This document shows positions 11,073-43,783 of a DNA stretch of 64,000 nucleotides, one piece after another (position 1 is the stretch's first letter; the number at the start of each line of letters is the position of its first letter). The stretch comes from a virus (lineage: Duplodnaviria > Caudoviricetes). The stretch is taken from the IMG/VR virus record IMGVR_UViG_3300010388_000214, positions 1 to 64,000 of that record. One strand, given 5' to 3'. Under the pieces are notes generated by a model that had not been told where the DNA came from, searched no databases, and saw nothing but the letters and a program-made list of their open reading frames with translations. A program made the position numbers and the translations under genes.

Positions 11073-11144
11073 TGCTCCATAGCTCAACGGCAGAGCAGGA
11101 AGCTGTTAACTTCAAGGTTCCTGGTTCGAATCCAGGTGGGGCAG
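11073..11144 (+). tRNA. tRNA-Asn(GTT)
   Basis: Cloverleaf; anticodon loop CTGTTAA; GGTTCGAATCC T arm; no encoded CCA. Confidence 0.92.
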
Positions 11145-11566: not shown

Positions 11567-11746
11567 ATGCCAATCTATGAATACAAATGTATCGAATGTG
11601 ATACAAAATTAACATTAGTTAAATCAGCAGATGATCGTGATAAAGATCTTCCTGCATGTAAGTCTTGCAATTCAGATATAAAGCGTGTATACTCTAAAGT
11701 AGGAGTTGCCTTTAAGGGCAGCGGCTTTTATTCCACAGACAAGTAA
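11567..11746 (+). CDS. FmdB-family zinc-ribbon protein
   Basis: MPIYEYKCIEC...CKSC...FKGSGFYSTD; AGGAGG SD. Confidence 0.9.
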   Translation: MPIYEYKCIECDTKLTLVKSADDRDKDLPACKSCNSDIKRVYSKVGVAFKGSGFYSTDK

Positions 11747-13655: not shown

Positions 13656-13940
13656 ATGGACAAGCATGAGTGGAAAGATCTAGGATCTTGCAGGGACTAT
13701 GACACTAACTTATTCTTTGATAAGTATGAAGATAATCTTGAACTCAGGCCTGCCATTGACAAGCTATGTTCTGACTGCCCAATGGTAAAGCAATGTTTTG
13801 CTGTTGGTGTCTCTCAGAAAGAATGGGGAGTCTGGGGAGGTGTGTATATTGAGAATGGAAAAATTTCCAGGGAATTCAATAAGCACAGGTCTAAAGAGGA
13901 TTGGTCTCAAACCTGGCAATATCTAACGATGGATAATTAA
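13656..13940 (+). CDS. whiB: WhiB-family Fe-S transcription factor
   Basis: C...LFF...CSDCP...QC...GVWGG. Confidence 0.9.
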   Translation: MDKHEWKDLGSCRDYDTNLFFDKYEDNLELRPAIDKLCSDCPMVKQCFAVGVSQKEWGVWGGVYIENGKISREFNKHRSKEDWSQTWQYLTMDN

Positions 13941-18906: not shown

Positions 18907-19358
18907 TGGCTAGGTTTACTAATCCAGCAACCGCATCAGACCTAAACCTTGTTGTTGTAGATACGTCATACGTTCTAGGTGGTGGAACCCTGAATGGTAG
19001 TCAGCCAACTTTTAATGGCGATCCACTTTTTGCTGGTAGCTATGTAAAGGTTGGAAGTCTTGTACACTTTAGAGCCACGGTGACGATGACAAACATTACT
19101 GGTTTTGGTACTGGACAATACTACATGACGCTACCGTTTAACGCCAAGTATGAAGAGTATATTCGTGGTGGTCATCTTCACGATAACTCTACCAACAAAT
19201 TTTACTCCATCTCTGCACAAACTACACCAGGATCAAATGTCATTAAGCTTTGGACTACAGCAAATAATGGTGACGACGTACCGTTTACATCGTCTGTTCC
19301 ATTTAACTTGGCAGTAGCAGATGACTTCCATGTCTCTGGTAGCTACATCGCAGCTTAA
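18906..19358 (+). CDS. tail-fibre-tip-like protein
   Basis: GSYVKVGSLVHF...LPF...SGSY pattern. Confidence 0.55.
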   Translation: MARFTNPATASDLNLVVVDTSYVLGGGTLNGSQPTFNGDPLFAGSYVKVGSLVHFRATVTMTNITGFGTGQYYMTLPFNAKYEEYIRGGHLHDNSTNKFYSISAQTTPGSNVIKLWTTANNGDDVPFTSSVPFNLAVADDFHVSGSYIAA

Positions 19359-19359
19359 G

Positions 19360-19681
19360 TGGAAGTGCAGGGAATCGAACCCTGGTCCTAGTATGAGGCT
19401 AACCGTACTTCTACATGTTTAGCTAGTTTAACTAATACAGACAGAGATGTTACTAGCAACACTCTGCCCAACTATACCATCCTAAGAAGCGTCACTTTAT
19501 TTTAAGAACTTGCCGCTCAGCGTGACCACTGCTAACAAGGTGCTTTCGCAGACAACCTAAGCTGCTAGAGCGTATTCGGCGTTATATTTTGCACTTATCC
19601 GATTGACACAAGTGAATTGTTTGTGCCCGTCAATACATGCTTCTCCAGATATCCGATACTAGTCGAAAACCTTTCACTCCC
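19360..19681 (-). ncRNA. ssrA: tmRNA
   Basis: 5' GGGAGUGAAAGGUUUUCGAC; 3' GGGUUCGAUUCCCUGCACUUCCA with G3.U alanine identity pair; tag frame 19592-19557 encodes AKYNAEYALAA*. Confidence 0.93.
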
Positions 19682-29149: not shown

Positions 29150-29850
29150 TAACAATTAACCCTAGTCAGAACACATCGTCTTGATTAGGGTTTTTTGCTT
29201 TGCCAAACCCCCTATCCCCATATCCCCCATAACCCCATATCCTGGTTTGACAGAGATCTAAATACCCCCAAAAGTTATCCACAATTGTGTAAAAGTTATC
29301 CACAATTATGTTACTGATTATATAATTAGACAGGGTTTGGAGATGTTGTGGTTTGTCTATTGGGTAAGAGAACGCCTGTATCAAGGCCGATCGTAATCCC
29401 AAACCTCCAAACCTCCCTATCCAAACCTTTCAAACCTCATATCCTGGTGTCCAAACCTGTGGATAAACCTGTGGATAACTTATCAAAACCTGTGGAAAAC
29501 TATCCAAAACCAGGAGAAAGTGTTTCTATATATAGGAGAAATGCTTATAAATATCAAGAATGGTTTGTTATTTGATATGCCGCCAAACCTTTCAAACCTT
29601 ATATAGTTATACATTGATCGGCGGTATTTTGGAGGGCATCGTAATGTCTAACCTTTAAACCAAGTATTAAGCCAGAACATAACTATACATGCTATTAACA
29701 CTATAGGTAATACTACTTCCATTTGATCTCCTTTCTTGGTTTGATATTGATGGTTTGATATTCCCCCAGAAAAAGTCCAGCGATTTTTTGAAGCCCATCG
29801 TAATGTCTTTCGTAAATAGGGTTTGAAATGTAACGGTTTGGTAACGAGTG
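29150..29850. repeat. non-coding repeat block with DnaA boxes and CAAACC repeats
   Basis: TTATCCACA at 29275 and 29296; TGTGGATAA at 29458 and 29470; TGTGGAAAA at 29491; more than a dozen CAAACC/GGTTTG units; lies between convergent gene blocks. Confidence 0.75.
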
Positions 29851-32093: not shown

Positions 32094-32326
32094 TAGTATC
32101 CTTTCAATATGTCTGACAGTTGGTCTAACTGTTCTGGGGTTAGTCTTCCGATTACACTTGTGTCGATTGCGTTAGCAAACATATCCTGTATTTCGTTCAT
32201 ATAATAAGTATGACTTAGATAAAATGGTTTGTCAATATTTCTGGGCGTTTTGTTACCCTATCGTAATCATTGCACAATGACTATATATATAGTTATAAAC
32301 ATTGGCGGCCCCCGATCCTGGTGGGG

Positions 32327-32353
32327 TAGGCAGTTTATTCTCATGCCTAGGAG
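32327..32353 (-). ncRNA. small pseudoknot motif, copy 2
   Basis: CUC-C-UAGGCA-U-GAG-AAUAAAC-UGCCUA just after the DUF932 stop. Confidence 0.65.
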
Positions 32354-32360
32354 TGTCCGC

Positions 32361-33380
32361 CTATGCGGTAGCTAGTTGAACAACCTTGAGCAAACGGTTC
32401 TTCTCTGCGTTGATAGCAGGGTCAAAGCCAGATGCGGAAGCCAAGACTGATTCGTTGTTACCCTTGCGACCAGAACGGTACCAGTCGAGACGCTCAGTCA
32501 TTGCGTTGAACGCACCCCAAGCGGTTCCACTAATCATGTGGTTGAACTCACCCTGATAGATGTCCTCAATCAGTTCCAGCTTGGTCTGCCACTTGGACAG
32601 AGAACCCTTAGAGTCTTTCTCTGGCATGGGGTAAGCAAGAGCAACGATTTCGTCAAACTTAGCCTTAGAGATTTCAGTCTCAATCATAGCCTTTGCCATG
32701 ATGTCGAATTCATCCATGTATGCGTTAGCAAGTCCCAAAGCCTCACGAGCTGCGATAACTTTACCCTCAGCGGTCTGAGTGTGACGAATCTTGAACGACT
32801 GCTTGATGTTACGGTTGCGACCTACACCACCACCGATAGCAAGGTTCAGAGTGTTAGCACAGACAACACGCACAGGGGTGATGCTTGCCTGAATCGCTAC
32901 AGAACCGTCATGAGATGTGTTGACGAGGAGGTAGGTGTTTACCTTGTCACCAACACCGTTAGGGTCTAGGACAGTCTCACGCTCAAGAGCAATGGAACCA
33001 AACACCTGACGACCACCCTTGATAGAACCAGCAGTCTCCCAGCGACCACCACCGTCTAGGATGTTGTCACCAAATGAGAACAGGTCTTCATTCTGGAGGG
33101 TACGGTAACGCTCACCAACAACGCCAAGCACGTCAGTCTGCTTCTTGTCGAATGGGTTAGAGCGAGCAACAAAATAGTTAGTCTTGTCTGAGGTAAAGTT
33201 CTCAGGCATAGGGATTTCTTCAAGACGAACATTCCAGTTGTCCAAGTGTGCCAACTCTAGCATCTTGGTTGTGTTTACTTCTTCCTCGAACACAGTACCC
33301 AAACCATGCCAAGCTGGTTCACGGAAAGAGGCAAAGGTAGTCTTGCCAGTTACTGAGTCGATTTCTAGTTCGTGTGCCAT
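32361..33380 (-). CDS. DUF932 (phage/plasmid-like TIGR03299) protein
   Basis: PAWHGLG, LGVVGERY..LQN, ETAGSIKGG, SHDGS, VRVVCANTL, GTAWGAFNA.TE. Confidence 0.88.
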   Translation of the reverse strand: MAHELEIDSVTGKTTFASFREPAWHGLGTVFEEEVNTTKMLELAHLDNWNVRLEEIPMPENFTSDKTNYFVARSNPFDKKQTDVLGVVGERYRTLQNEDLFSFGDNILDGGGRWETAGSIKGGRQVFGSIALERETVLDPNGVGDKVNTYLLVNTSHDGSVAIQASITPVRVVCANTLNLAIGGGVGRNRNIKQSFKIRHTQTAEGKVIAAREALGLANAYMDEFDIMAKAMIETEISKAKFDEIVALAYPMPEKDSKGSLSKWQTKLELIEDIYQGEFNHMISGTAWGAFNAMTERLDWYRSGRKGNNESVLASASGFDPAINAEKNRLLKVVQLATA

Positions 33381-33522
33381 GTGGCTACTTCTTTCTTTAG
33401 GGGATGAATTGCTTACTTATATAAGTATGACAGTGTTTAGCTATCTTGTCAACCATCTGGGGGGTATTTTCTTACCTTCGTAATTAAACTGTTACATTCG
33501 GGGGGCCGCAGGGTATTTAGAG

Positions 33523-33552
33523 TGAGCAGTTTCAGATCAATGCTCAGGACCT
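33523..33552 (-). ncRNA. small pseudoknot motif, copy 3
   Basis: AGGUC-C-UGAGCA-UU-GAUCU-GAAAC-UGCUCA. Confidence 0.6.
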
Positions 33553-33613
33553 GGCCTAGGGGAAAGAAAGGAATAAGAACCCTAGGCCATCATCGGTAAC
33601 CCCTTACCGAGAA

Positions 33614-33808
33614 TTAAAACAAACGTTGCTTGTGGTCCAGAAAGGTACCAGTAATGAATGCACGTACATGTGCGTAAGCTTCTGCACGTCCTTCTTCATA
33701 TGCAGCTTCGAAAGGACATCCGTCGGTCTCTTGTTCATTCATCGACTCAACAGCTTCGTCTTCCTTCTTGTGGAAGTACTGCAGCAGCTCAGATACTAGT
33801 TCATCCAT
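33614..33808 (-). CDS. hypothetical protein
   Basis: Coupled ORF; YEEGRAEAY. Confidence 0.6.
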   Translation of the reverse strand: MDELVSELLQYFHKKEDEAVESMNEQETDGCPFEAAYEEGRAEAYAHVRAFITGTFLDHKQRLF

Positions 33809-34005
33809 TAGTTGCCTACGAATTCAACTACAGTGTCAGCTTCTTGGTACTCGACCATGTCAAGCTTTTCTTCAGTGATATCAAACTCAGGCCAGTAATC
33901 AGCATCCTCGTTACCCTGCGAGACGTGAAAGATTGCAAGAGCTTCGTCTTCACTGTCCGCCTGCACGGAATAGGTATTGCCAGATGTTATAAAGTATGTA
34001 GCCAT
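33808..34005 (-). CDS. hypothetical acidic protein
   Basis: AGAAGG SD; VQADSEDEAL. Confidence 0.6.
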   Translation of the reverse strand: MATYFITSGNTYSVQADSEDEALAIFHVSQGNEDADYWPEFDITEEKLDMVEYQEADTVVEFVGN

Positions 34006-34145
34006 GTTGGCCTTCTTTCTTTGTCGGTAATACAAGTATGACAGCTGTGGGGGGTATTTGTCAACCTTCGTAACCTAAACGTTACATTTGCGAGGGGCCG
34101 CCCAAATCCCCTAGCCATCACGACAAACGATCAACTAGGGGTGGG

Positions 34146-34209
34146 TGAGCAGTTTTTATTCCACCAGCATACTCAGGCTAATGAGGCAGTTTTATCTCAT
34201 ACCCAGGAG
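34146..34209 (-). ncRNA. small pseudoknot motif, tandem copies 4 and 5
   Basis: CUC-CU-GGGUA-U-GAG-AUAAAAC-UGCCU then UAGC-C-UGAGUA-U-GCUG...AAAAAC-UGCUCA. Confidence 0.6.
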
Positions 34210-34215
34210 TAATTA

Positions 34216-34659
34216 CTAGAGTAGGTCAATCACCGTGTTGTAGGTAGTTGCCGAGACTTCCTCCTGAGAGGTCATCTTCAGTACCTTTAGGTTACGCTCT
34301 AGCAGGGACTTGCGTGTCGTATACTCACGACCAAAGTGCTGTGACTCATTTGGCTTGCTTGGTTCTTTGGGTGCTTCTGGCAAACCAAGCAGGTCAGAGT
34401 TCACGCTAACACGAACAGAGTTACCGTATTCATTTGATACACGGATAGGCGAGTCATACTCGTTGCCAATTAGTTCTGGCTTACCAAGTGCTTTGATAAC
34501 AGCCTCAACAACTGCTTTCTGGTGGTCTGCCTTAGCCTTGCGGTACTCCTCCATTTGAGCAGGGTACACAGCCAAGTCAGCCTCAATCTTAGCAAGAGAT
34601 GCCTCAATGTCAGCAATGAGAGATGCGGTAGGGATTTTCACAGAGAGTGAACGAGCCAT
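34216..34659 (-). CDS. hypothetical protein
   Basis: 147-aa ORF with typical codon use. Confidence 0.75.
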   Translation of the reverse strand: MARSLSVKIPTASLIADIEASLAKIEADLAVYPAQMEEYRKAKADHQKAVVEAVIKALGKPELIGNEYDSPIRVSNEYGNSVRVSVNSDLLGLPEAPKEPSKPNESQHFGREYTTRKSLLERNLKVLKMTSQEEVSATTYNTVIDLL

Positions 34660-34699
34660 AATTGTTTATCTACTTTCTTATTTACTAGGGGTTAGTGTC

Positions 34700-34730
34700 T
34701 GGGTAGTTTAGACAGACATACCCAGGTCTG
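34700..34730 (-). ncRNA. small pseudoknot motif, copy 6
   Basis: CAGAC-C-UGGGUA-U-GUCUG-UCUAAAC-UACCCA. Confidence 0.65.
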
Positions 34731-34826
34731 TTTTCCTTTTGGAAAGTGTGTAGGTGGGGGTCTGGCTAGACACGGCTACCTCTCGGAAACCAGACATTAC
34801 GGGTAGCGAACCCACCTACGGTTAGA

Positions 34827-34973
34827 CTACTTTACGGTAGTCCAGCGAGTGTCACCGTTTGCGAGGGTGAGACGAACACGGCTTGAGCCAGTTGCGTTCT
34901 TCACGATTTCCTCAACGATACCCGATACACCAGATGCCTGAGTGGTAAAGGTTTCTCCGATTACTGCGTTCAT
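34827..34973 (-). CDS. small beta-rich protein (48 aa, not in ORF track)
   Basis: AAGGA SD; MNAVIGETFTTQASGVSGIVEEI...RWTTVK; TTGACA-N17-CATACT promoter upstream. Confidence 0.65.
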   Translation of the reverse strand: MNAVIGETFTTQASGVSGIVEEIVKNATGSSRVRLTLANGDTRWTTVK

Positions 34974-35140
34974 TTTATTACTGCTTCCTTGTAGTGAGCC
35001 AACTTTGACTGATTTGTTTTACCAAGTCGTTTACTTGATATATCTAGTATGACATCAAATCTGGGGGGTGTCAAGCCTTATCGTAACCTTTTTTATAACA
35101 GGTTGGTAACGGTCGGGGGCCGATCCCCGTTGGGGGTAGC

Positions 35141-35701: not shown

Positions 35702-35844
35702 GGGGTGTTCCTTTCCTTATATAAATAACTATACAGTTACCCACGGACATTTGCAAGGGTATTCTTAACTATCTTAATAACGAATAGGTAACGGATCAGC
35801 GGCCCCCGTGGGGGTAGAGAAGTCAATCCCCACCCCCAATGGTA

Positions 35845-36327
35845 TTACCAAGAAGCCTGATATATAAATGAAATATCGCTTGTGATAGTTTTGTCTAGCA
35901 GAGTCTTCAACTCTTTCTTAGTACGCTTGAGGTCTTCCCAGTACCACTTGTCTATTTCAGTAGAACCAAAGAAGAAACCAGAAACAGGCTCTAACTCAGA
36001 CGTATCTTTAGTTGCGATAACATCTGTAACAGTAAACAGCAACTCTTCCAACCTCTCACGGCTAACATAAACAGGCTGGCACTCGTCTACACCGTTAGCA
36101 CAGTTAGTGATAAACCAGTTATGGATTTGGTTAGACTTACGCCAATAGATAGCAGTCTCAGTTACAGACAGGCCAACGCTTTCGTCTGAGGCTAGGCTGT
36201 TGAGGTTTGAGGCGGTAAGAACTTCGAGATAGTCTCGGTTCTTCTCACGCTGATAGTCACCATCTACAACCTTGTAGTTGTTAGCAGGAATAAACTTACG
36301 GACTTCCAGGTACATATCGAGACCCAT
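35845..36327 (-). CDS. conserved phage protein (MGLDMYL family)
   Basis: MGLDMYL, YWRK.NQIH.WF, GFFFGS, YQASW. Confidence 0.75.
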   Translation of the reverse strand: MGLDMYLEVRKFIPANNYKVVDGDYQREKNRDYLEVLTASNLNSLASDESVGLSVTETAIYWRKSNQIHNWFITNCANGVDECQPVYVSRERLEELLFTVTDVIATKDTSELEPVSGFFFGSTEIDKWYWEDLKRTKKELKTLLDKTITSDISFIYQASW

Positions 36328-36544
36328 TAGGGACTCCTTTCTTTTGAGGTTTGGTTACAGTTTAGCAGTACCCACGGACATTAGTCAAGGTCATCTACTA
36401 AAATAATTTCTTTGTTGAACTGGATTGCTTCCTCTAGCATATGGAGCATACCCAATTCTTTTGAGGTCAGGTTGTGGGTGGTGAACAGGTCTGTGGGGGT
36501 ACCAGTCTCAGTGTCCACTACTCGGATAAATAGGTCTAGTGCCA

Positions 36545-36748
36545 TTAGTTCTTATACTCCCTAATTGTAAATTCTTCTGTACCGTTTTCTAGTGCATCTT
36601 CATATTCTTCGACAGTACTGAAATAATAAAACACACCGTCGTCATTTACTTCTGAGTAATCAGTAATAAAGTCATCAGAGATAACGACATAAGTAAAAAA
36701 CTCGTCTCGTGGGTCATCTCGCCAAGTGACTAGGACTTCCTTTTCCAT
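36545..36748 (-). CDS. hypothetical acidic protein
   Basis: AAGGAG SD. Confidence 0.6.
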   Translation of the reverse strand: MEKEVLVTWRDDPRDEFFTYVVISDDFITDYSEVNDDGVFYYFSTVEEYEDALENGTEEFTIREYKN

Positions 36749-37095
36749 TATGCATACTCCTTGATTGCTCGGTTCTTTACAGTGCTACGGGTTCGCAGTC
36801 TGTTTGGTCGGTTGTCATGTGTGCCAGAGGCATTGGACTTACGCAGTTCACGCATACCAATAATGTATGCCGTGTTCTGAATTTTCTGGGGTGGTTTCGC
36901 TTTCTTCATAAACTAATTATGACATGACCCACTGACATTCCCGATTTTGGGGGGCCGCCCGAAGGCCCATTCTAGATGAATTCGAATGGGTCTCGGTCTT
37001 GGAAGATATCCTCGAAGTCCTGCATGGTATATGCTCCAGGGTTAGCCATGTAGTCTCGGTAGTCTGCCATGATCTCTTCTGCTTGCTCGTCCATA

Positions 37096-37284
37096 TTATC
37101 CTCTCCTAGGTTTTGCTTTTAGTTCTCCACGGTGGAATCTAGTTACAAACTCTCTCGCTGCTGGCCAGTACTCTAGGTTGAATGCTCGCTCATTATGCAT
37201 CTCAACCATATCCAAGGCTAGCTGTTCGATTAGCTTGCGGTCAGTAATGATTACTGGCTTTATGTATGTCTCACGCTTAGTCAT
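37096..37284 (-). CDS. hypothetical protein
   Basis: Coupled ORF. Confidence 0.55.
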   Translation of the reverse strand: MTKRETYIKPVIITDRKLIEQLALDMVEMHNERAFNLEYWPAAREFVTRFHRGELKAKPRRG

Positions 37285-37565
37285 TAGTCTAACTCACTCT
37301 CGATAATCCACATACCCAAGCGGTATGACTCAACGATATCCCAAGCCTTGACCCACTCACTGCCACGGAATGTAACACCCTCTGGCAACTTGATTTTGAG
37401 GTGACCCTCTCCGTCATTCACGGTGTCAATAGCCTCGACTGCTGTATCAACCATCTGCTGAGGAATTGGAGGATAGCAATTCGTCTGGAAGTGTAGGCTA
37501 ATTTGCTGTTCAAGTGTGAAGCCTAGTTCGTCATCTTGAAGTGCTAGTGCTGATAAGTTTCCCAT
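37284..37565 (-). CDS. hypothetical protein
   Basis: AAGGA SD; H...NCYPPIP...LPEGV. Confidence 0.7.
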   Translation of the reverse strand: MGNLSALALQDDELGFTLEQQISLHFQTNCYPPIPQQMVDTAVEAIDTVNDGEGHLKIKLPEGVTFRGSEWVKAWDIVESYRLGMWIIESELD

Positions 37566-37803
37566 TAGTTTTCCTTTTCTTTTGATACTATAAACCTATC
37601 ACAAGCCACGGACATTATCAACGTAATCGTAAGATCTTTTGGTAACAGTTAGATAACGAAGGGCCGCCTCGCACTCCCCTAGAAGGGGAGCTTGAGGTTT
37701 TTGTTTGCTTCTTTTAGTTCGTTTATCTCATTACGCTGAGCAACGATAATGATACCAGCAATGATTAGGCTGAACCACATACCCCAGAACAATAGGTCTA
37801 GCA

Positions 37804-37992
37804 TTAGTTTACCTCCACCTTGTAGCAAGCGTCTACAAACTTTACAGCCAAGAAACGGTCATTGTCCTCAGCAAACATAGCACAGAAGTCGTTCACCATA
37901 TTGTCAAACTTTTCTTCCAAGCCAATAGACATTTCCTGGTAGAAGTCGTTCAGGATTTCAGCGGTAGCAACGTAGTCTTTACGTGTCATCAT
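37804..37992 (-). CDS. hypothetical protein (MTRKDY family)
   Basis: MTRKDY..TAEIL...DNDRF...KF..AC. Confidence 0.7.
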   Translation of the reverse strand: MMTRKDYVATAEILNDFYQEMSIGLEEKFDNMVNDFCAMFAEDNDRFLAVKFVDACYKVEVN

Positions 37993-38280
37993 TTTATTTA
38001 TTTCCTATTCTTAGTTAGCGAATGTGTCGAGAATGTTTTTGTAGGCGTCACGCTTACCGATAAAGTAAGACTTAGAGAGTTCCGAGGCGTAAGGGTCTGC
38101 GATGAAGTCATCAGCAATTTTGATTAGTTCGTTCAGAACCTTTACGGAGAGTGTTACAGTTGTCATTAGTTTTCCTTTCGTTATGTCTAAAGTCTATACC
38201 CACCCACTGACATTCTCAACCCCGACACGCCGTGTTTCTTAAACTTTCTTAAAACTTTTTTGGCGATCGGGGGCCGCTTC

Positions 38281-38529
38281 CTAGTAGTCGTCTCCATAGA
38301 AGCCACCATCGTTTGCTCCACCGTAGTCCTCGTCGTCACCCCAGCCAGCAGAGGCAAGAGCATCGGCATCCATCCAGGACTCGTCAGACCAGTCGTCTGC
38401 GGAGTCAGCGAAGAGGTCTTCCTCACGCTGGTCCTCGTCGGTCAGGAAGATAAGTTCGTTGTCCTCCCCGAGGATTGCGTCTGCCAAGACAGAGGTGTCG
38501 AACTCTTCGATTGCGAGAATGTTGGTCAT
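38281..38529 (-). CDS. extremely acidic small protein
   Basis: GAAAGGA SD; about 27 D/E and one basic residue in 82 aa. Confidence 0.7.
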   Translation of the reverse strand: MTNILAIEEFDTSVLADAILGEDNELIFLTDEDQREEDLFADSADDWSDESWMDADALASAGWGDDEDYGGANDGGFYGDDY

Positions 38530-39224
38530 GAGTTTTCCTTTCGTTGTAAAACAAATCTAACACAAACCACAGACATTTTCAAGCGGTTTGCAGCGTTTAT
38601 CTTAATTAACTTAATAACTTTTTGGTAACGACGGGGGGCCGCCTGTGTATAACTTATCCACAGGTTAACATTCGGGGTACATTCCATAAATTACCTGTGG
38701 GAATACCCCAGGAATATCCCTAGAGTTGTCGATAATTATCTGAGCTTCCTCACGGGTAAAGACAATCTGTGACATTATGTCTTGGAATGTCTTTTCATCT
38801 CTTAGAGTTATTTCATAGCCTAGCTTTTCCATTACTTGAGACCCTTTCCTGCTGGGTGGAGAGCAATAGCACGCTCTAACTCACGGTGCTTTCGCAACTC
38901 AGCAAGTGAGGTGTTGTAGTGAGCAAATTTAGTCTTGAAGCCACATTCTGGGCAAGTGTACTGAGTCATTTCAATTTCCTTTTCTTTGTTATCTAAAGTC
39001 TAGCGGTACCCACGGACATTATGCCTTGAAGGCAGACATTGCCACAATTTTAGTTGTGTACATTTTCTTGGCAATTGCCTGAGCGTGCCAAGTGTTGGAA
39101 GCCATAGCGAATACGGTGAAACGCTCACCTGTTGCTAACTTACCTGAGACTTTGTATTCAATCATTTTTATTTCCTAACTCTTAGTTTCTTTATATCTAA
39201 ACTCTACACCCACCCACGGACATT

Positions 39225-39371
39225 CTAACTGTTGTAGTCGAAACATACATTCTGGTTAGGATATTCCAATTCGAATTCTTTACGCTTAGCGTCTACGGTA
39301 TCGCGATCGCGACCCCAGAATTCGTTTAGCAACTTTCCAGTTCCTCTTTCAATTACTTGTACAATCCACAT
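39225..39371 (-). CDS. hypothetical protein
   Basis: GAAAGGA SD. Confidence 0.5.
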   Translation of the reverse strand: MWIVQVIERGTGKLLNEFWGRDRDTVDAKRKEFELEYPNQNVCFDYNS

Positions 39372-39539
39372 ATTTGGATTCCTTTCTCTTAGATTCTTTT
39401 TCTTACTTTCTTTATATCTAAAGTCTATACCCACCCACTGACATTTTGGGGTGCGACACGCCGTAACGTAAGAAAAAACTTATCCACAAAGTTATCCACA
39501 GGGGGCCGCCAAATCGGCGGTATGTCAAGTGACACGCCG

Positions 39540-39719
39540 TTAGTCACCAATCATTTTACGATAGGCGTTGAAGACATCCTTGTCAGTGTACTGACTCTGT
39601 GCCGATAGCAATTCGTCATACTTAGCCTGACTTGCTTTCCAGATACGACCGTCATCTGACATAGCATCTTCAAAAGCACGCATCTTTGCCGATAGTAGGC
39701 TTTTCATTAGTTCATCCAT
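39540..39719 (-). CDS. hypothetical protein
   Basis: GAAAGGA SD. Confidence 0.55.
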   Translation of the reverse strand: MDELMKSLLSAKMRAFEDAMSDDGRIWKASQAKYDELLSAQSQYTDKDVFNAYRKMIGD

Positions 39720-39735
39720 TTTGGAATCCTTTCTT

Positions 39736-39879
39736 TTAGTTACGAACACGGCTAATTGAAACCGAGTAAAAGTCATCACGAGCATAAGCCCGTTCGATGG
39801 CTTCGGCTTCATTGAAACCTACGAACATAGTTTCGTGAACGAAACCACCATCTTTTTCTTTGATAATTACTTTGAACAT
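39736..39879 (-). CDS. hypothetical protein
   Basis: AAAGGAG SD. Confidence 0.55.
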   Translation of the reverse strand: MFKVIIKEKDGGFVHETMFVGFNEAEAIERAYARDDFYSVSISRVRN

Positions 39880-40841
39880 TTTAGTTCTCCTTTCTAAGAG
39901 ACTTTCTTTTTTATTTCCATATTTAGTTTTTCTTTCTATATTTACATAGTAACAGTACCCACTGACATTTTGGGGCATTTTCGGGGGGTTTTTGGTAACG
40001 GAATTATAACGAAGTTATACACAGAGTTATCCACAGGGGGCCGCCAATTTTGGCGGTATGTCAAGTCGACACGCCGTTAGTCCCAATAACTACTATTGGA
40101 TCGACCATATGAGTTAGTCCACCAGGTAGGCACACTGTATTCGTTATCGATTGATTCTGTAGTTGTTTCATTATCCATATTAGTTATCTTCTTTCATTAG
40201 TTCTACTTGTACGCCTAGCAGTTCTTCTGCTGACATATCCTCTATATCGATTACACCTTCTGGTGTGAGTATCTTGAAGAATCCCATTAGAATTCGCAAC
40301 CATATGCGTCTAGGCATATCTTGCAGGATTCTTCCTGACATTCATTACAGAATACTGATTCTGTATAGTTATCACAGATATCGCAAAACGCTAATCCAAT
40401 TTCATTTAGTAAGTTCATTATGAACTCCTTTCTTTAGTGAGAATCTTATTTGCTTATTTCTAAGGCTCATATTCTCTATTTATTTTTTCTTTCTTTCTTT
40501 ATATTATCAGTCTATACCCTATCCCAGAAAAAGCAAGCCCAAAAGCCACAAAATTTCAGCCTATTTTTTGTAGGCTACTTACAAGAGTTATCCACATAGT
40601 TATCCACAGGCGGCCCCTCATTTGCCAGGGTATGTCAAGGCAACACGCCGATGATGATAAGAATAGTATTGATCAGTAGCAAGGCTATACATACCCACCC
40701 TGCTACCCCACCTACCCTATCCAAGAGACCACACACCCAAGATGAATGCATAGAAGCCTAGCATTATCAAGAACATCATTCCTGTATAGACAATGCCACG
40801 AACAAATCCACGTACGAGATAGTATAGCTTAGAGTGTTCCA

Positions 40842-41054
40842 TTAGAACTCCTTCGATTCAATGTGTTCCCATACTGCACCAACAAGACCACCAAGGCAAG
40901 AGACAGCAACTACACCAAGCATCCAAGTGATAGCAATCGGTGCCATACTCTGAGTGATAGGAGTGTAGTCAATGCTTGATGCCCAATCGAATGAGAAGGC
41001 AAAGCTTGTGATGAAGAGTGATGCTAGTACAATCATTAGTGCTACGAGTTTCAT
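40842..41054 (-). CDS. small membrane protein
   Basis: Two hydrophobic segments; first gene after the 41086 promoter. Confidence 0.6.
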   Translation of the reverse strand: MKLVALMIVLASLFITSFAFSFDWASSIDYTPITQSMAPIAITWMLGVVAVSCLGGLVGAVWEHIESKEF

Positions 41055-41233
41055 TTTCTGTCCTTTGTTATTTCCTGATATATATATTCAATCACGACCC
41101 ACGGACAATGTCAAGCGACACGCCGTGTGCTCACTAAAAAGTACCCCCCACCCAGTACTCAAATCATGTATCGTACATCTTTAAAAATTATTCAGATTTT
41201 CTGTAATTCTGATTTTCAAAATTTTTCAGATTT

Positions 41234-41977
41234 TTACTCAACAACGTTTTTACGGATCTCAGACAGAACCATCTCTGGCATCATAGACTGCTCTGAGTGC
41301 TGGTAGCGATAATCCAAAGTCTTGTTGCGGCCATAGATGTTTGGTGAGTTACTAGTCTCCTTAGTCAGAGCAAGTAGATTCTCGTTAAACATGTAACGCT
41401 TAAACACAACCTTCTTGTCAGTCATGATCTCAAGGAAGAACAGTGGGTCATCCTCTTTGACTGAAAACTTTCGGGTAGTCTTAGGAATGTGGTAATCCAA
41501 GTTCCAAGAGCGATACCACTTACCAATATTAAACTCTCCTGGTGACATACGTGCACCTTCCATTGGTGATACAGCAGGAAAGTATGGAGCTGTAAATCTA
41601 GCTACGACTGGTTCTGATGAAAAGAACAACCATGATAGATTATAGATAACATCAATTTGGTCGGGGAAGCTAGAAGGTCTCTCATGATACATTCCTGCAA
41701 TAGACTTTACATTCATACGAGGACTCTTTGCTGGGTCTGGTTCGTTCTCAAAGTAATAGTCTGGAATTTCAAATTCGTCATCGATAGCTGATCTAAATAC
41801 AAACACATTGTCTAATGTATTTCGTGCAGCAGGACATTGCGACATAAGAGATCCAGGAATCTTCTCACGATGAAGGTTTGTATAAACATTCTCTGGTTTG
41901 CGATACAGCATAGCCATAGACTCTGTGCTTGGCATGTAGTTTGCTGGTGCCCAGTAGATCGTAATTTCTTCTGACAT
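41234..41977 (-). CDS. conserved phage protein, apparent paralog of 10271-10987
   Basis: QCPA, PGEFNIGKWYR, EDDPLF. Confidence 0.65.
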   Translation of the reverse strand: MSEEITIYWAPANYMPSTESMAMLYRKPENVYTNLHREKIPGSLMSQCPAARNTLDNVFVFRSAIDDEFEIPDYYFENEPDPAKSPRMNVKSIAGMYHERPSSFPDQIDVIYNLSWLFFSSEPVVARFTAPYFPAVSPMEGARMSPGEFNIGKWYRSWNLDYHIPKTTRKFSVKEDDPLFFLEIMTDKKVVFKRYMFNENLLALTKETSNSPNIYGRNKTLDYRYQHSEQSMMPEMVLSEIRKNVVE

Positions 41978-42160
41978 TTATGGTAGCTTCAACTCGGGGG
42001 TAGACTTAATCAAGTTATAAGTCAAAGCCCATTTATTTATAAGCTTATAAGACACATGTAGATCCTTAGCGATCTGTCGAACTGTCTTGGTTTGTAGCTG
42101 TTCAGCTAGCCAGGTCTTATCCTGATAGTATTTGACGTATCCGTCTTTCATTGTTTCCAT
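41978..42160 (-). CDS. small HTH protein, paralog of 3588-3743
   Basis: YQDKTWL...TVRQIAKDLHVSYKLINKW. Confidence 0.7.
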   Translation of the reverse strand: METMKDGYVKYYQDKTWLAEQLQTKTVRQIAKDLHVSYKLINKWALTYNLIKSTPELKLP

Positions 42161-42242
42161 ATTCTCTCCTTTATGGTTTGGTATCTAAATTTTATCAGAC
42201 ACTATTTCTTTTTGCAAGTACAGGTATCTCCACACATAAACG

Positions 42243-42443
42243 TCACCACTTCCCCATAGGGCATACGGCCTTCTCTAACGTTGTTTTGAGCTTCATGTAA
42301 CATCCACACTTACGACATTTTGTTAGACGCTTATCTAGCCACTCACAGCCTTTACAAATTTCTAAACGCTGCTCAATGAGTTCTCTATCTGATCTCGGTT
42401 GTGATGGATCAAACAGATCTGTAAACTTTACGTCTTTGGCCAT
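42243..42443 (-). CDS. small Cys-rich Zn-binding protein
   Basis: RLEICKGC...CRKCGCYM..K...CP.GKW. Confidence 0.75.
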   Translation of the reverse strand: MAKDVKFTDLFDPSQPRSDRELIEQRLEICKGCEWLDKRLTKCRKCGCYMKLKTTLEKAVCPMGKW

Positions 42444-43105
42444 ACATCTATTTTATCACGTCTTAAGCATTGAGTTCAGATAATTCATTTCGTGCTCTGC
42501 ACTAACAAAGCCAGTGCCTTCAGTGGTCTTACAGTCTACACAAAATTTAATAATCATGTATCCGCCATTGTGGCTATCGGTTTGACCTATTTTCCAATTA
42601 TGTTTACAATCCATAATCTACTATATCAAATTTTCGACGGTATCAATCAGCTTGTCTGATTCCGAAGGAGGCATTGTCCACAAAAGGATAACTCCCCATA
42701 ATCGGTCATAGTATTAAACCAATATATATCTGATCTATGCCGTATGAGGAGCTATAGATATATTGTACACCCATTTGAAAAGGTTTGTCAAGGTTTGAAA
42801 GAAAAACCCCTAGCCGTAAATTAGAATGTGAGATCTACGGTTAGGGGAGCTTGGTTTTCTTGACTGGGACTTCTATTATATCAAAAGAAAATCCCCCACC
42901 TGCCGCAGCCTCCGATGGGGGATCCAATAGGTCGTCGGCTTTCGCAGAGGTCTCTATTGTTACTCTTTGTGGGAAGGACTTCCTTCACCATGATGTGGCC
43001 TAGTAAACTACGCCGAGAAGGACCTTGTCTTCTCATTAATACGATTATAGCAAAGAAAATCTCCCCTTGCAAGCAGAGGGGGAGATCGAGACAATTCTAT
43101 TGTAG

Positions 43106-43176
43106 CACCCCACCGAGGAATTGAACCCCGTCCAACAGGTTTGGAATCTGTCATGCTGCCGTAACACTTGTGAGAT
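43106..43176 (-). tRNA. tRNA-Trp(CCA)
   Basis: ATCTCAC/GTGGGGT acceptor, loop TTCCAAA, GGTTCAATTCC; TTGCAA-N17-TATAAT promoter at 43264-43236. Confidence 0.85.
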
Positions 43177-43783
43177 AGACAACCTAGCCACCGTAGATCC
43201 TAAGATTTCCTGCGTAGCTAGGTCTTAACATATTAATTATAGCAAATATTTTTACACATTGCAATAACATGTAAAGAAAATCGCAAAAACTTTACATATC
43301 GCCTAACATGTCTTATGTCAAATGAAAGACAACTTTACTTTGTAGAAAACAAATGAAAGCTAAATGAGGTTTACTTTCATTTAATGCCTTATATAGTCGT
43401 CATAAAGTTGGTTAATGCCTGTTATATTCGTCATTATTCAACTATTCGGGATTTCCGAACAGTTCACTTATTCGGTTTTTCCGAACAACTCAAATCAGTA
43501 CGTACCTTCCGAAAACCAGGAAAAGTTGGTGTCAAACCACAATAATTGGTTTAAATCGGAACGAACATTCTTATCTGTTACCATTTCGTTATCATTCTGT
43601 TACATATCTGTAACATTTACCCATATTCAAACCATATCTCGGATTCTGGGAGGTTAAGGTTTGAGGTTTGGGTATGTAATTCTCACCGCGAACTTTACGC
43701 CGTCGAGCTTTGCGATGCTTATTCATCTTAGTTATCAACATGTTGTGGATAACTTTTAAAAAGGACACTATAATAGTAATATC

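Follow-up and report, generated by a model that had tools for sequence, protein, structure and literature searches.

Promoter sites resembling host PafBC promoters precede a block of small genes in an uncultured phage clade

A leftward-transcribed block of small genes in an uncultured virus (Duplodnaviria; Caudoviricetes) carries eleven repeated promoter sites in which the word TGTC.G stands ten nucleotides (nt) upstream of a -10 element, an arrangement resembling the promoters read by the actinobacterial DNA-damage activator PafBC. The block belongs to the IMG/VR virus record IMGVR_UViG_3300010388_000214 (95,625 bp; 88% complete according to CheckV; GC content about 43%), of which positions 1 to 64,000, a stretch of 64 kb referred to here as the window, were analyzed. 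All of the evidence in this analysis is sequence-based. The eleven units comprise about 23 genes encoding 33-186 amino acids (aa), and known families among their products are almost nil, being limited to DUF7178 and to weak PHROG matches, namely one for an 82-aa acidic protein and two of unknown function.

With 12 occurrences in the window, the word TGTCNGTGG exceeded the 1.75 expected, and 0 of 100 shuffles reached this number. Eleven copies are located on the minus strand (35741-41107), where they form sites of the structure TGTCNGTGG-N7-(TAnnnT-like) within the block at 35728-41107, and the twelfth (11733-11741), which has no -10 element at the proper distance, is unrelated to the promoter set. 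Over the full 95,625-bp record, TGTCNGTGG-N7-TANNNT had nine matches, all on the reverse strand, with no match on either strand for the reversed control pattern; the remaining two sites carry the variant -10 elements CATAAT (36937) and TTGAAT (41107) at the same distance. The original prediction had described eleven minus-strand sites with N10 geometry, nine with TAnnnT and two with these variants, and our scan returned the same count, sites, and hexamers, with the quoted examples and coordinates being right. The hexamer TGTC.G is present in 11/11 sites, and N10 between the hexamer and TAnnnT is exact in 9/11, the other two having the variant -10 at that distance. Position 5 of the hexamer is C in 6/11 sites, A in 4/11, T in 1/11, and G in 0/11, giving a purine (R) in 4/11. 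When a weight matrix derived from relatives was applied to the whole record, 10 sites scored above 12 bits, every one of them inside the block.

All 11 sites are intergenic, with 6-66 nt separating the end of the -10 element from the ATG, and the genes opened in this way encode 45-186 aa, which bears out the claim that the sites stand just upstream of small genes. A purine-rich ribosome-binding stretch precedes all starts but one, the exception being the gene behind the site at 36937, whose mRNA is probably leaderless because the CATAAT element ends so close to the start codon. ATG or GTG is found 5-8 nt past the -10 element in 80 of the 655 sites of the relatives described below.

Hexamers of the TTG type (4-6 of 6 matches to the -35 consensus TTGACA), 17-18 nt from the -10 element, were found in 6/11 sites directly 5' of TGTC (TTGACA, TTGAAA, TTGAGA, TTGATA, TTGACT, and TTGCAA), and four of these six sites were also detected by a generic sigma-70 scan. 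The other 5/11 sites have only 2-3 of 6 matches; the earlier statement that most sites lack a good -35 is accordingly correct for these five and incorrect for the six with a TTG-type hexamer. An extended -10 (TGn) is present in 6/11 sites. Certain copies are near-identical across 30-60 nt, such as those at 39443 and 38212 (families D1-D4). The coordinates of the sites and of neighboring features are summarized in Table 1.

Table 1. Promoter sites of the small-gene block, neighboring promoter classes, and DnaA boxes in the window
Feature	Coordinates	Strand	Sequence elements	Genes and remarks
Promoter 1	41086..41107	-	TGTCCG-N10-TTGAAT; perfect TTGACA 17 nt from -10; TGn	70-aa gene 41054-40842, then 41-aa gene
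Promoter 2	39946..39967	-	TGTCAG-N10-TACTAT; no -35 (2/6); TGn	47-aa gene 39879-39736 and 59-aa gene 39719-39540
Promoter 3	39422..39443	-	TGTCAG-N10-TAGACT; no -35 (2/6)	48-aa gene 39371-39225; ACGGCGTGTC begins 21 nt 5' of TGTC
Promoter 4	39201..39222	-	TGTCCG-N10-TAGAGT; weak -35 (3/6)	48-aa gene 39165-39019
Promoter 5	38997..39018	-	TGTCCG-N10-TAGACT; no -35 (2/6)	45-aa gene 38969-38832 and 55-aa gene 38832-38665
Promoter 6	38554..38575	-	TGTCTG-N10-TAGATT; TTGAAA at 17 nt; TGn	very acidic 82-aa gene 38529-38281
Promoter 7	38191..38212	-	TGTCAG-N10-TAGACT; TTGAGA at 17 nt	genes 38166-38011, 37992-37804, and 37804-37679; ACGGCGTGTC begins 21 nt upstream
Promoter 8	37593..37614	-	TGTCCG-N10-TAGGTT; TTGATA at 17 nt; TGn	93-aa gene 37565-37284 (family in 64/81 loci), then further genes
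Promoter 9	36916..36937	-	TGTCAG-N10-CATAAT; TGn	-10 end 6 nt before ATG 36909; basic 53-aa protein
Promoter 10	36359..36380	-	TGTCCG-N10-TAAACT; TTGACT at 18 nt; TGn	160-aa gene 36327-35845
Promoter 11	35728..35749	-	TGTCCG-N10-TATAGT; TTGCAA at 17 nt	186-aa DUF7178 gene 35701-35141
CATACT-class promoters	35074-35046; 34064-34035; 33452-33424; 32235-32207	-	TTGACA-N17/18-CATACT	before clade-conserved genes: 48-aa, 147-aa, and DUF932 (33380-32361)
Canonical sigma-70-type promoters	42189..43264	-	TTGCAA-17-TATAAT at 43264 and 43072; TTGACA-18-TACAAT at 42791; TTGCAA-17-TAAAAT at 42217	
DnaA boxes	29275-29499; 38654-38662; 39480-39500; 40027-40035; 40588-40608; 43744-43752			

Relatives were collected by scanning IMG/VR with the DUF932 protein, which gave 214 confirmed relatives, and 80 loci (35-45% GC, 1.34 Mb) were kept. 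The gene strand of these loci contained 655 sites matching TGTCNG-N10-TANNNT, 485 of them unique, with at most 3 per locus on the opposite strand. Among hexamers located 10 nt 5' of any TAnnnT on the gene strand, TGTCAG (525) and TGTCGG (89) ranked highest, and the third reached 60. Variation of the spacing k from 4 to 17 in TGTC[AG]G-Nk-TAnnnT yielded 614 matches at k=10, 189 at k=16, and at most 72 elsewhere, compared with 36 on the other strand; the second-highest spacing, N16, corresponds to a second A/T-rich stretch. Anchoring on TGTC[AG]G alone recovered TAnnnT at N10 in 466 of 676 unique gene-strand contexts versus 25 of 240 on the other strand, and the information profile of the anchored contexts peaked at the three TAnnnT positions at N10. 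An alternative -10 element farther downstream, with ATGTCA serving as -35, was rejected because this unforced profile peaks at N10 and not at N16.

Position 5, which the search pattern left free, was A in 525, G in 89, T in 31, and C in 10 of the 655 related sites, so that 94% (614/655) carry R; the match to TGTCRG is therefore close for the relatives and holds for only 4/11 sites of the window, where C predominates. The clade consensus reads AAA-TGTCRG-W-S-S-N4-TGn-TAnAAT, with no more than 0.25 bit of information at the -35 position. Over the 485 unique sites, unforced flanks are kept (A-rich at -3 to -1, position 5, T at +6, and TGn), and the N positions of the spacer are nearly random; TTG stands at the -35 position in 159/485 and TGn in 283/485. 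The element is present in every related locus having an upstream flank. Four complete relatives and one that is 84% complete each contain a single one-strand block of about 10-15 kb with 7-26 sites per genome, and in one relative all 26 sites start with TGTCGG, the majority form being TGTCGGTGG. Gene content of the block varies strongly between relatives, and the motif is universal. Retention of the motif despite differing gene content and near-random spacers indicates that the element is maintained by selection, not by recent duplication.

In the original prediction, the PafBC promoter was worded as tTGTCRgtg-N8-TAnnnT. According to the excerpts of PMC8635444, the consensus obtained by chromatin immunoprecipitation sequencing (ChIP-seq) is tGTCgg(N10)tA(N3)T; the helix-turn-helix (HTH) domain of PafB touches -23 to -28 and reads the GTC triplet via R46 and R50, the HTH of PafC contacts sigma domain 4, the -35 is dispensable, and these promoters are described as unrecognized by RNA polymerase (RNAP) with SigA alone. 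The excerpts of two further papers state that PafBC binds only to RNAP-SigA already sitting on such a promoter and only with single-stranded DNA (ssDNA) bound (PMC11804915), and that the PafBC level is constant under stress (PMC6789036).

As a host control, we used recA loci from a class-level actinobacterial genome sample, 34 of them from published genomes. TGTCNG-N10-TAnnnT was found upstream of recA in 29 of these 34 loci and on the opposite strand in 0/34. Position 5 in the 29 sites was G in 22, A in 4, C in 2, and T in 1; host promoters thus naturally include the C and T variants found in the window. The unforced trinucleotide following the hexamer was TGG in 32% and ACC in 20% of the phage sites, compared with background values of 1.8% and 1.2%, and the same two were the most frequent in the host recA sites (ACC 6/29, TGG 5/29). 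In our view, this common flank is the strongest independent hint that one machinery reads both sets. At the TGn positions, the host recA sites have T in 8/29 and G in 5/29, with C commonest at the G position.

Two complete 1.49-Mb genomes (about 49% GC; 20-kb samples) have the site before recA, and one of the two, G039, additionally has it ahead of a LysM-domain gene and, at a distance of 6 nt from the start, of a RadA-like gene. In five small host-like genomes of 1.4-1.9 Mb, where host-like means small actinobacterial genomes of the sampled class and nothing more, raw pattern counts amounted to 9-13 hits, not above the reversed control; the informative sites in such genomes are only those that are both conserved between G039 and G069 and located before repair genes. 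Tandem WYL open reading frames resembling pafBC (309-344 aa) were present in 6/6 small actinobacterial genomes, and one such pair scanned with Pfam showed HTH_PafC+WYL+WCX and WYL+WCX.

The window sites fit the published PafBC promoter, as had been claimed, in their TGTC.G word and in the N10-TAnnnT geometry of the nine regular sites, and the match of the clade is stronger than that of the window. Like PafBC-dependent (RecA-NDp) promoters, the phage sites combine a non-palindromic TGTC(R)G near -26 with N10 to a SigA-type TAnnnT and the TGG/ACC flank, and they stand directly before genes, some of them leaderless. Unlike these promoters, they form blocks of 7-27, the genes that follow are small ones of unknown function and not DNA-repair genes, many sites have an extended -10 and/or a TTG-type -35, which are missing in the host recA sites, and position 5 is mostly C in this window.

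Comparison with cultured phages revealed terminase identities of 50-53% to Streptomyces phages of the Stanwilliamsviridae and 36-41% to two Rhodococcus phages. The DUF932 gene adjoining the block has a counterpart, 53-56% identical, within the left end of those Streptomyces phages, and no near-identical DNA was found in cultured phages. A WhiB gene is located at 13656-13940; WhiB is regarded as an actinophage marker in the excerpts of PMC10202952 and PMC10914622. Because of WhiB, the Streptomyces-phage-like terminase and DUF932 genes, and the probable leaderless start, an actinobacterial host is plausible and the virus may be considered an uncultured actinophage, which agrees with the host assumed when the PafBC claim was made. 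Assignment to Mycobacterium was not reached, and M. smegmatis, which had been proposed for reporter assays, is a stand-in for the uncultured host. A WhiB-based scan of genome contigs gave four matches (L091-L094), in metagenome-assembled genomes titled Methylococcus, Chitinophagaceae, Polynucleobacter, and Aquiluna, with WhiB proteins 61-76% identical to that of the phage. These are probably phage contigs mis-binned into bacterial genomes, and a host call by this route was dropped. No integrase or resolvase was found in the 88%-complete record, and a temperate lifestyle, in which the block would consist of damage-inducible prophage genes, was rejected on this basis. Six cultured relatives (Yaboi, Francob, Faust, Wakanda, Weasels2, and Francesca) have hosts in the genera Streptomyces or Rhodococcus, which presumably have PafBC.

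We favor, at somewhat better than even confidence, the reading that the promoters of the block are read by host PafBC, because three independent features, namely the TGTCRG core word, the exact N10, and the flanking trinucleotides, coincide with those of host promoters and no phage factor is evident. The sequences establish the motif with its geometry, its placement ahead of genes, its conservation in the clade, and its identity with recA-type host promoters; PafBC as the reader, ssDNA as the trigger, and the timing of expression are inferred. The -10 element would be read by the host housekeeping sigma factor, and TGTCNG, 10 nt upstream, would act as a "-26 element" recognized by PafB as part of the ssDNA-activated WYL activator PafBC, which would be placed between sigma domain 4 and the DNA ("sigma adaptation"). 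Host PafBC-RNAP would in this way transcribe the block of about 23 small genes, which is the most economical arrangement because the phage encodes no detected factor of this kind. Expression would be licensed or boosted once ssDNA appears in the infected cell through DNA entry, resection, or phage replication. Sites with a TTG-type -35 and/or an extended -10 (about half) would have basal SigA-only transcription added to the PafBC-dependent mode; given these elements, PafBC, if it is used, is more likely to boost than to gate strictly at many sites.

Two wider consequences may be considered for the PafBC reading. It is possible, although we hold this only tentatively, that the uncultured actinophage clade has turned every promoter of its takeover-gene block into a PafBC (-26/-10) copy, so that the ssDNA alarm of the host licenses their expression. 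In addition, a replicating phage could draw PafBC-RNAP off host repair and defense genes, because 7-27 gene-strand sites are present per phage genome of about 100 kb versus 9-13 raw hits, few of them real-looking, per 1.4-1.9-Mb host-like chromosome. The titration of PafBC, the triggering by incoming DNA, and the first-wave role proposed in the original prediction are conjectural.

Several points weigh against reading by PafBC. Position 5 in the window is mostly C and never G, yet C is rare in the relatives (10/655) and in the host recA sites (2/29). The presence of PafBC in the true host is assumed, and recA is not preceded by such a site in one Aquiluna-titled genome that has pafBC-like genes. 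Phage promoters of this type could work with SigA alone, given the TTG-type -35 and TGn elements in six of 11 window sites each and in 159 and 283 of the 485 related sites. An activator that is inactive without ssDNA is also an odd choice for genes that are needed immediately. Small, fast-evolving activators of the MotA/AsiA kind would evade Pfam searches, and MotA itself was not searched for. Finally, the six cultured relatives showed no enrichment of the motif, with 2-7 hits per genome versus 0-9 for the reversed control.

Since these cultured relatives are without the motif, actinophage status alone does not imply PafBC-type wiring. The homologous region of Yaboi has GTTGCA-N17/18-TAGACT promoters, and together with the missing enrichment this indicates that the -26 element is an innovation of the uncultured clade, replacing an ancestral -35/-10 design or superimposed on it. 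The window phage, in which TTG hexamers are frequent and TAGACT serves as -10, looks intermediate.

The possibility that a phage-encoded factor reads TGTCNG, in the manner of MotA/AsiA at T4 middle promoters, appears unlikely to us; in that case, a canonically promoted product would switch on the block as a delayed-early or middle class. The architecture equals that of T4 middle promoters, a comparison drawn by the PafBC authors themselves in the excerpts of PMC8635444, and the canonical promoters upstream (42.2-43.3 kb) and the ordinary ones downstream (32.2-35.1 kb) could supply such a factor first. The majority of the small block proteins are without a known family, and the motif is unused in the cultured relatives on Streptomyces and Rhodococcus. 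However, a phage factor would have to copy the host TGTCRG, N10, and TGG/ACC flank by coincidence, and Pfam domain searches of the phage and of four 100%-complete relatives detected no WYL, HTH_PafC, or AsiA domain (AsiA at E <= 1); a fifth, 84%-complete relative likewise gave no WYL domain. Sigma70_r4 was not found above the cut-off in the phage or the four complete relatives, a sub-threshold match of 15.3 bits being seen in relative G082, and no Sigma70_r2 was found in the phage record, the only genome searched for it. These results fit the host-sensor reading of the original prediction. A 60-aa protein with a weak HTH (41978-42160) could be named as such a factor, but its Pfam matches are all below the cut-off, and it was rejected as a universal reader because it occurs in only 2/85 searched loci. 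The 147-aa protein encoded at 34216-34659 on the minus strand, behind a CATACT-class promoter, is the best-conserved neighbor of the block (75/81 loci). Its AlphaFold model (mean confidence score, pLDDT, 84.5) shows a long helix and a small beta domain, yet none of 23 Protein Data Bank (PDB) fold matches reached E <= 0.001 and no informative Pfam or PHROG family was found; despite the confident model, this lead was abandoned for want of a structural or family match. Another gene with a CATACT-class promoter (34827-34973, minus strand) is present in 74/81 loci, and a 247-aa protein (41234-41977) had no Pfam match.

Ordinary SigA promoters, in which TGTCNG lies in the spacer as an operator for a phage or host regulator tuning or shutting the block, or as a spacer feature that tunes strength, would account for the TTG-type hexamers and TGn elements counted above in the window and in the relatives, and for the plain GTTGCA-N17/18-TAGACT promoters in the homologous region of Yaboi. 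Extended -10 promoters, moreover, need no -35. We nevertheless regard this explanation as improbable: an operator needs no single-base register with the -10 element, yet N10 accounts for 614 matches and no other spacing exceeds 189; as a 6-bp asymmetric word, the element does not look like a typical repressor site; a -35 is missing from 5/11 window sites and from most related sites; and the identity with the site of a host activator would be a coincidence. That the repeat is a functionless relic of recent promoter-cassette duplication would explain the near-identity of copies over 30-60 nt (39443 and 38212, for example), and is nonetheless very improbable. The N positions are near-random over the 485 unique sites while unforced flanks are conserved, the TGTC[AG]G anchor alone recovers TAnnnT at N10, and the conservation of the element in every related locus with an upstream flank contradicts such an origin. 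The leftover probability goes to further readings.

Outside the TGTC.G set, the leftward-transcribed region carries further promoter classes, which brings the predicted number of classes to at least three. Ordinary TTGACA-N17/18-CATACT promoters had been noted at 32-35 kb, and four copies were indeed found (32207-35074) versus 0.07 expected. The canonical sigma-70-type promoters at 42189..43264 are located upstream of the block and precede a tRNA-Trp gene and small genes at 41978-42614. Five copies of the word ACGGCGTGTC occur on the minus strand of the window, with starts at 41126, 40077, 39540, 39464, and 38233. Related loci contain 128 copies versus about 2.6 expected, placed either 2-3 nt 5' of a canonical TTGAC -35 or, in 13 related cases, 20 nt (start to start) 5' of TGTCRG; ACGGCGTGTC is probably an upstream promoter or activator element. 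Another word, GCGGCCCC, follows the ends of transcription units on the minus strand (40044, 39509, 38642, 38277, 36958, 34101, and 33509). In the 1.34 Mb of the environmental relatives it is nearly missing, with 3 copies, and a similar word, GCCGCCCCGG, stands before promoters of Streptomyces phage Yaboi.

Perfect DnaA-box 9-mers (TTATCCACA/TGTGGATAA) were found 11 times in the window. A cluster at 29.3-29.5 kb, with four exact copies and one near copy in both orientations, is a candidate phage origin, and direct pairs 12 nt apart lie in intergenic parts of the promoter block. The 80 related loci (1.34 Mb) contain 394 exact boxes versus about 10 expected and 14 for the reversed-word control. 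The 82-aa protein behind promoter 6 (38281-38529, minus strand) is extremely acidic, with an Asp/Glu-rich C-terminal half, and its composition recalls that of DNA-mimic anti-restriction proteins; the function behind its weak PHROG match is not annotated. The window also encodes a transfer-messenger RNA on the minus strand (19357-19681; Rfam 93.8 bits; tag peptide AKYNAEYALAA) and tRNAs at 11073, 11336, 11481, 21486, and 43106.

Among known phage systems, T4 middle promoters (MotA box and AsiA) are similar in that a box between -35 and -10 stands in for -35 recognition by the primary sigma factor of the host. T4 encodes both activator and co-activator, whereas none was found here and the box equals the site of a host activator. 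The early promoters in the terminal repeat of Stanwilliamsviridae phages, exemplified by Yaboi, lie in a homologous region recognized by its DUF932/DUF945 gene, with many small leftward genes that have their own promoters and TAGACT-like -10 elements, but their GTTGCA -35 stands at 17-18 nt and no TGTC element is present. Phage genes under LexA/SOS control, such as the damage-inducible antirepressors of temperate phages, respond by derepression and usually belong to temperate phages. They likewise tie phage expression to a DNA-damage regulator of the host; the block described here would differ in being activated through a LexA-independent pathway, and no integrase or resolvase was detected. 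The original prediction knew of no such phage circuit, and no description of PafBC-type phage promoters was found among the matches listed in a full-text literature search, as far as their titles and abstract openings tell. To our knowledge, the only role described for PafBC and sigma adaptation is in the DNA-damage response of cells.

If the PafBC reading is true, this clade would be the first viruses using the PafBC pathway as a switch of gene expression and would provide a host-factor counterpart to the self-encoded sigma appropriation of T4. It would also suggest that infection itself activates PafBC. The clade would offer hundreds of natural promoter variants for defining how PafBC-RNAP reads its sites, such as the TGG/ACC flank and the degree of variation allowed at position 5, and, if the reading holds, this regulatory signature would tie an abundant uncultured phage group to actinobacterial hosts.

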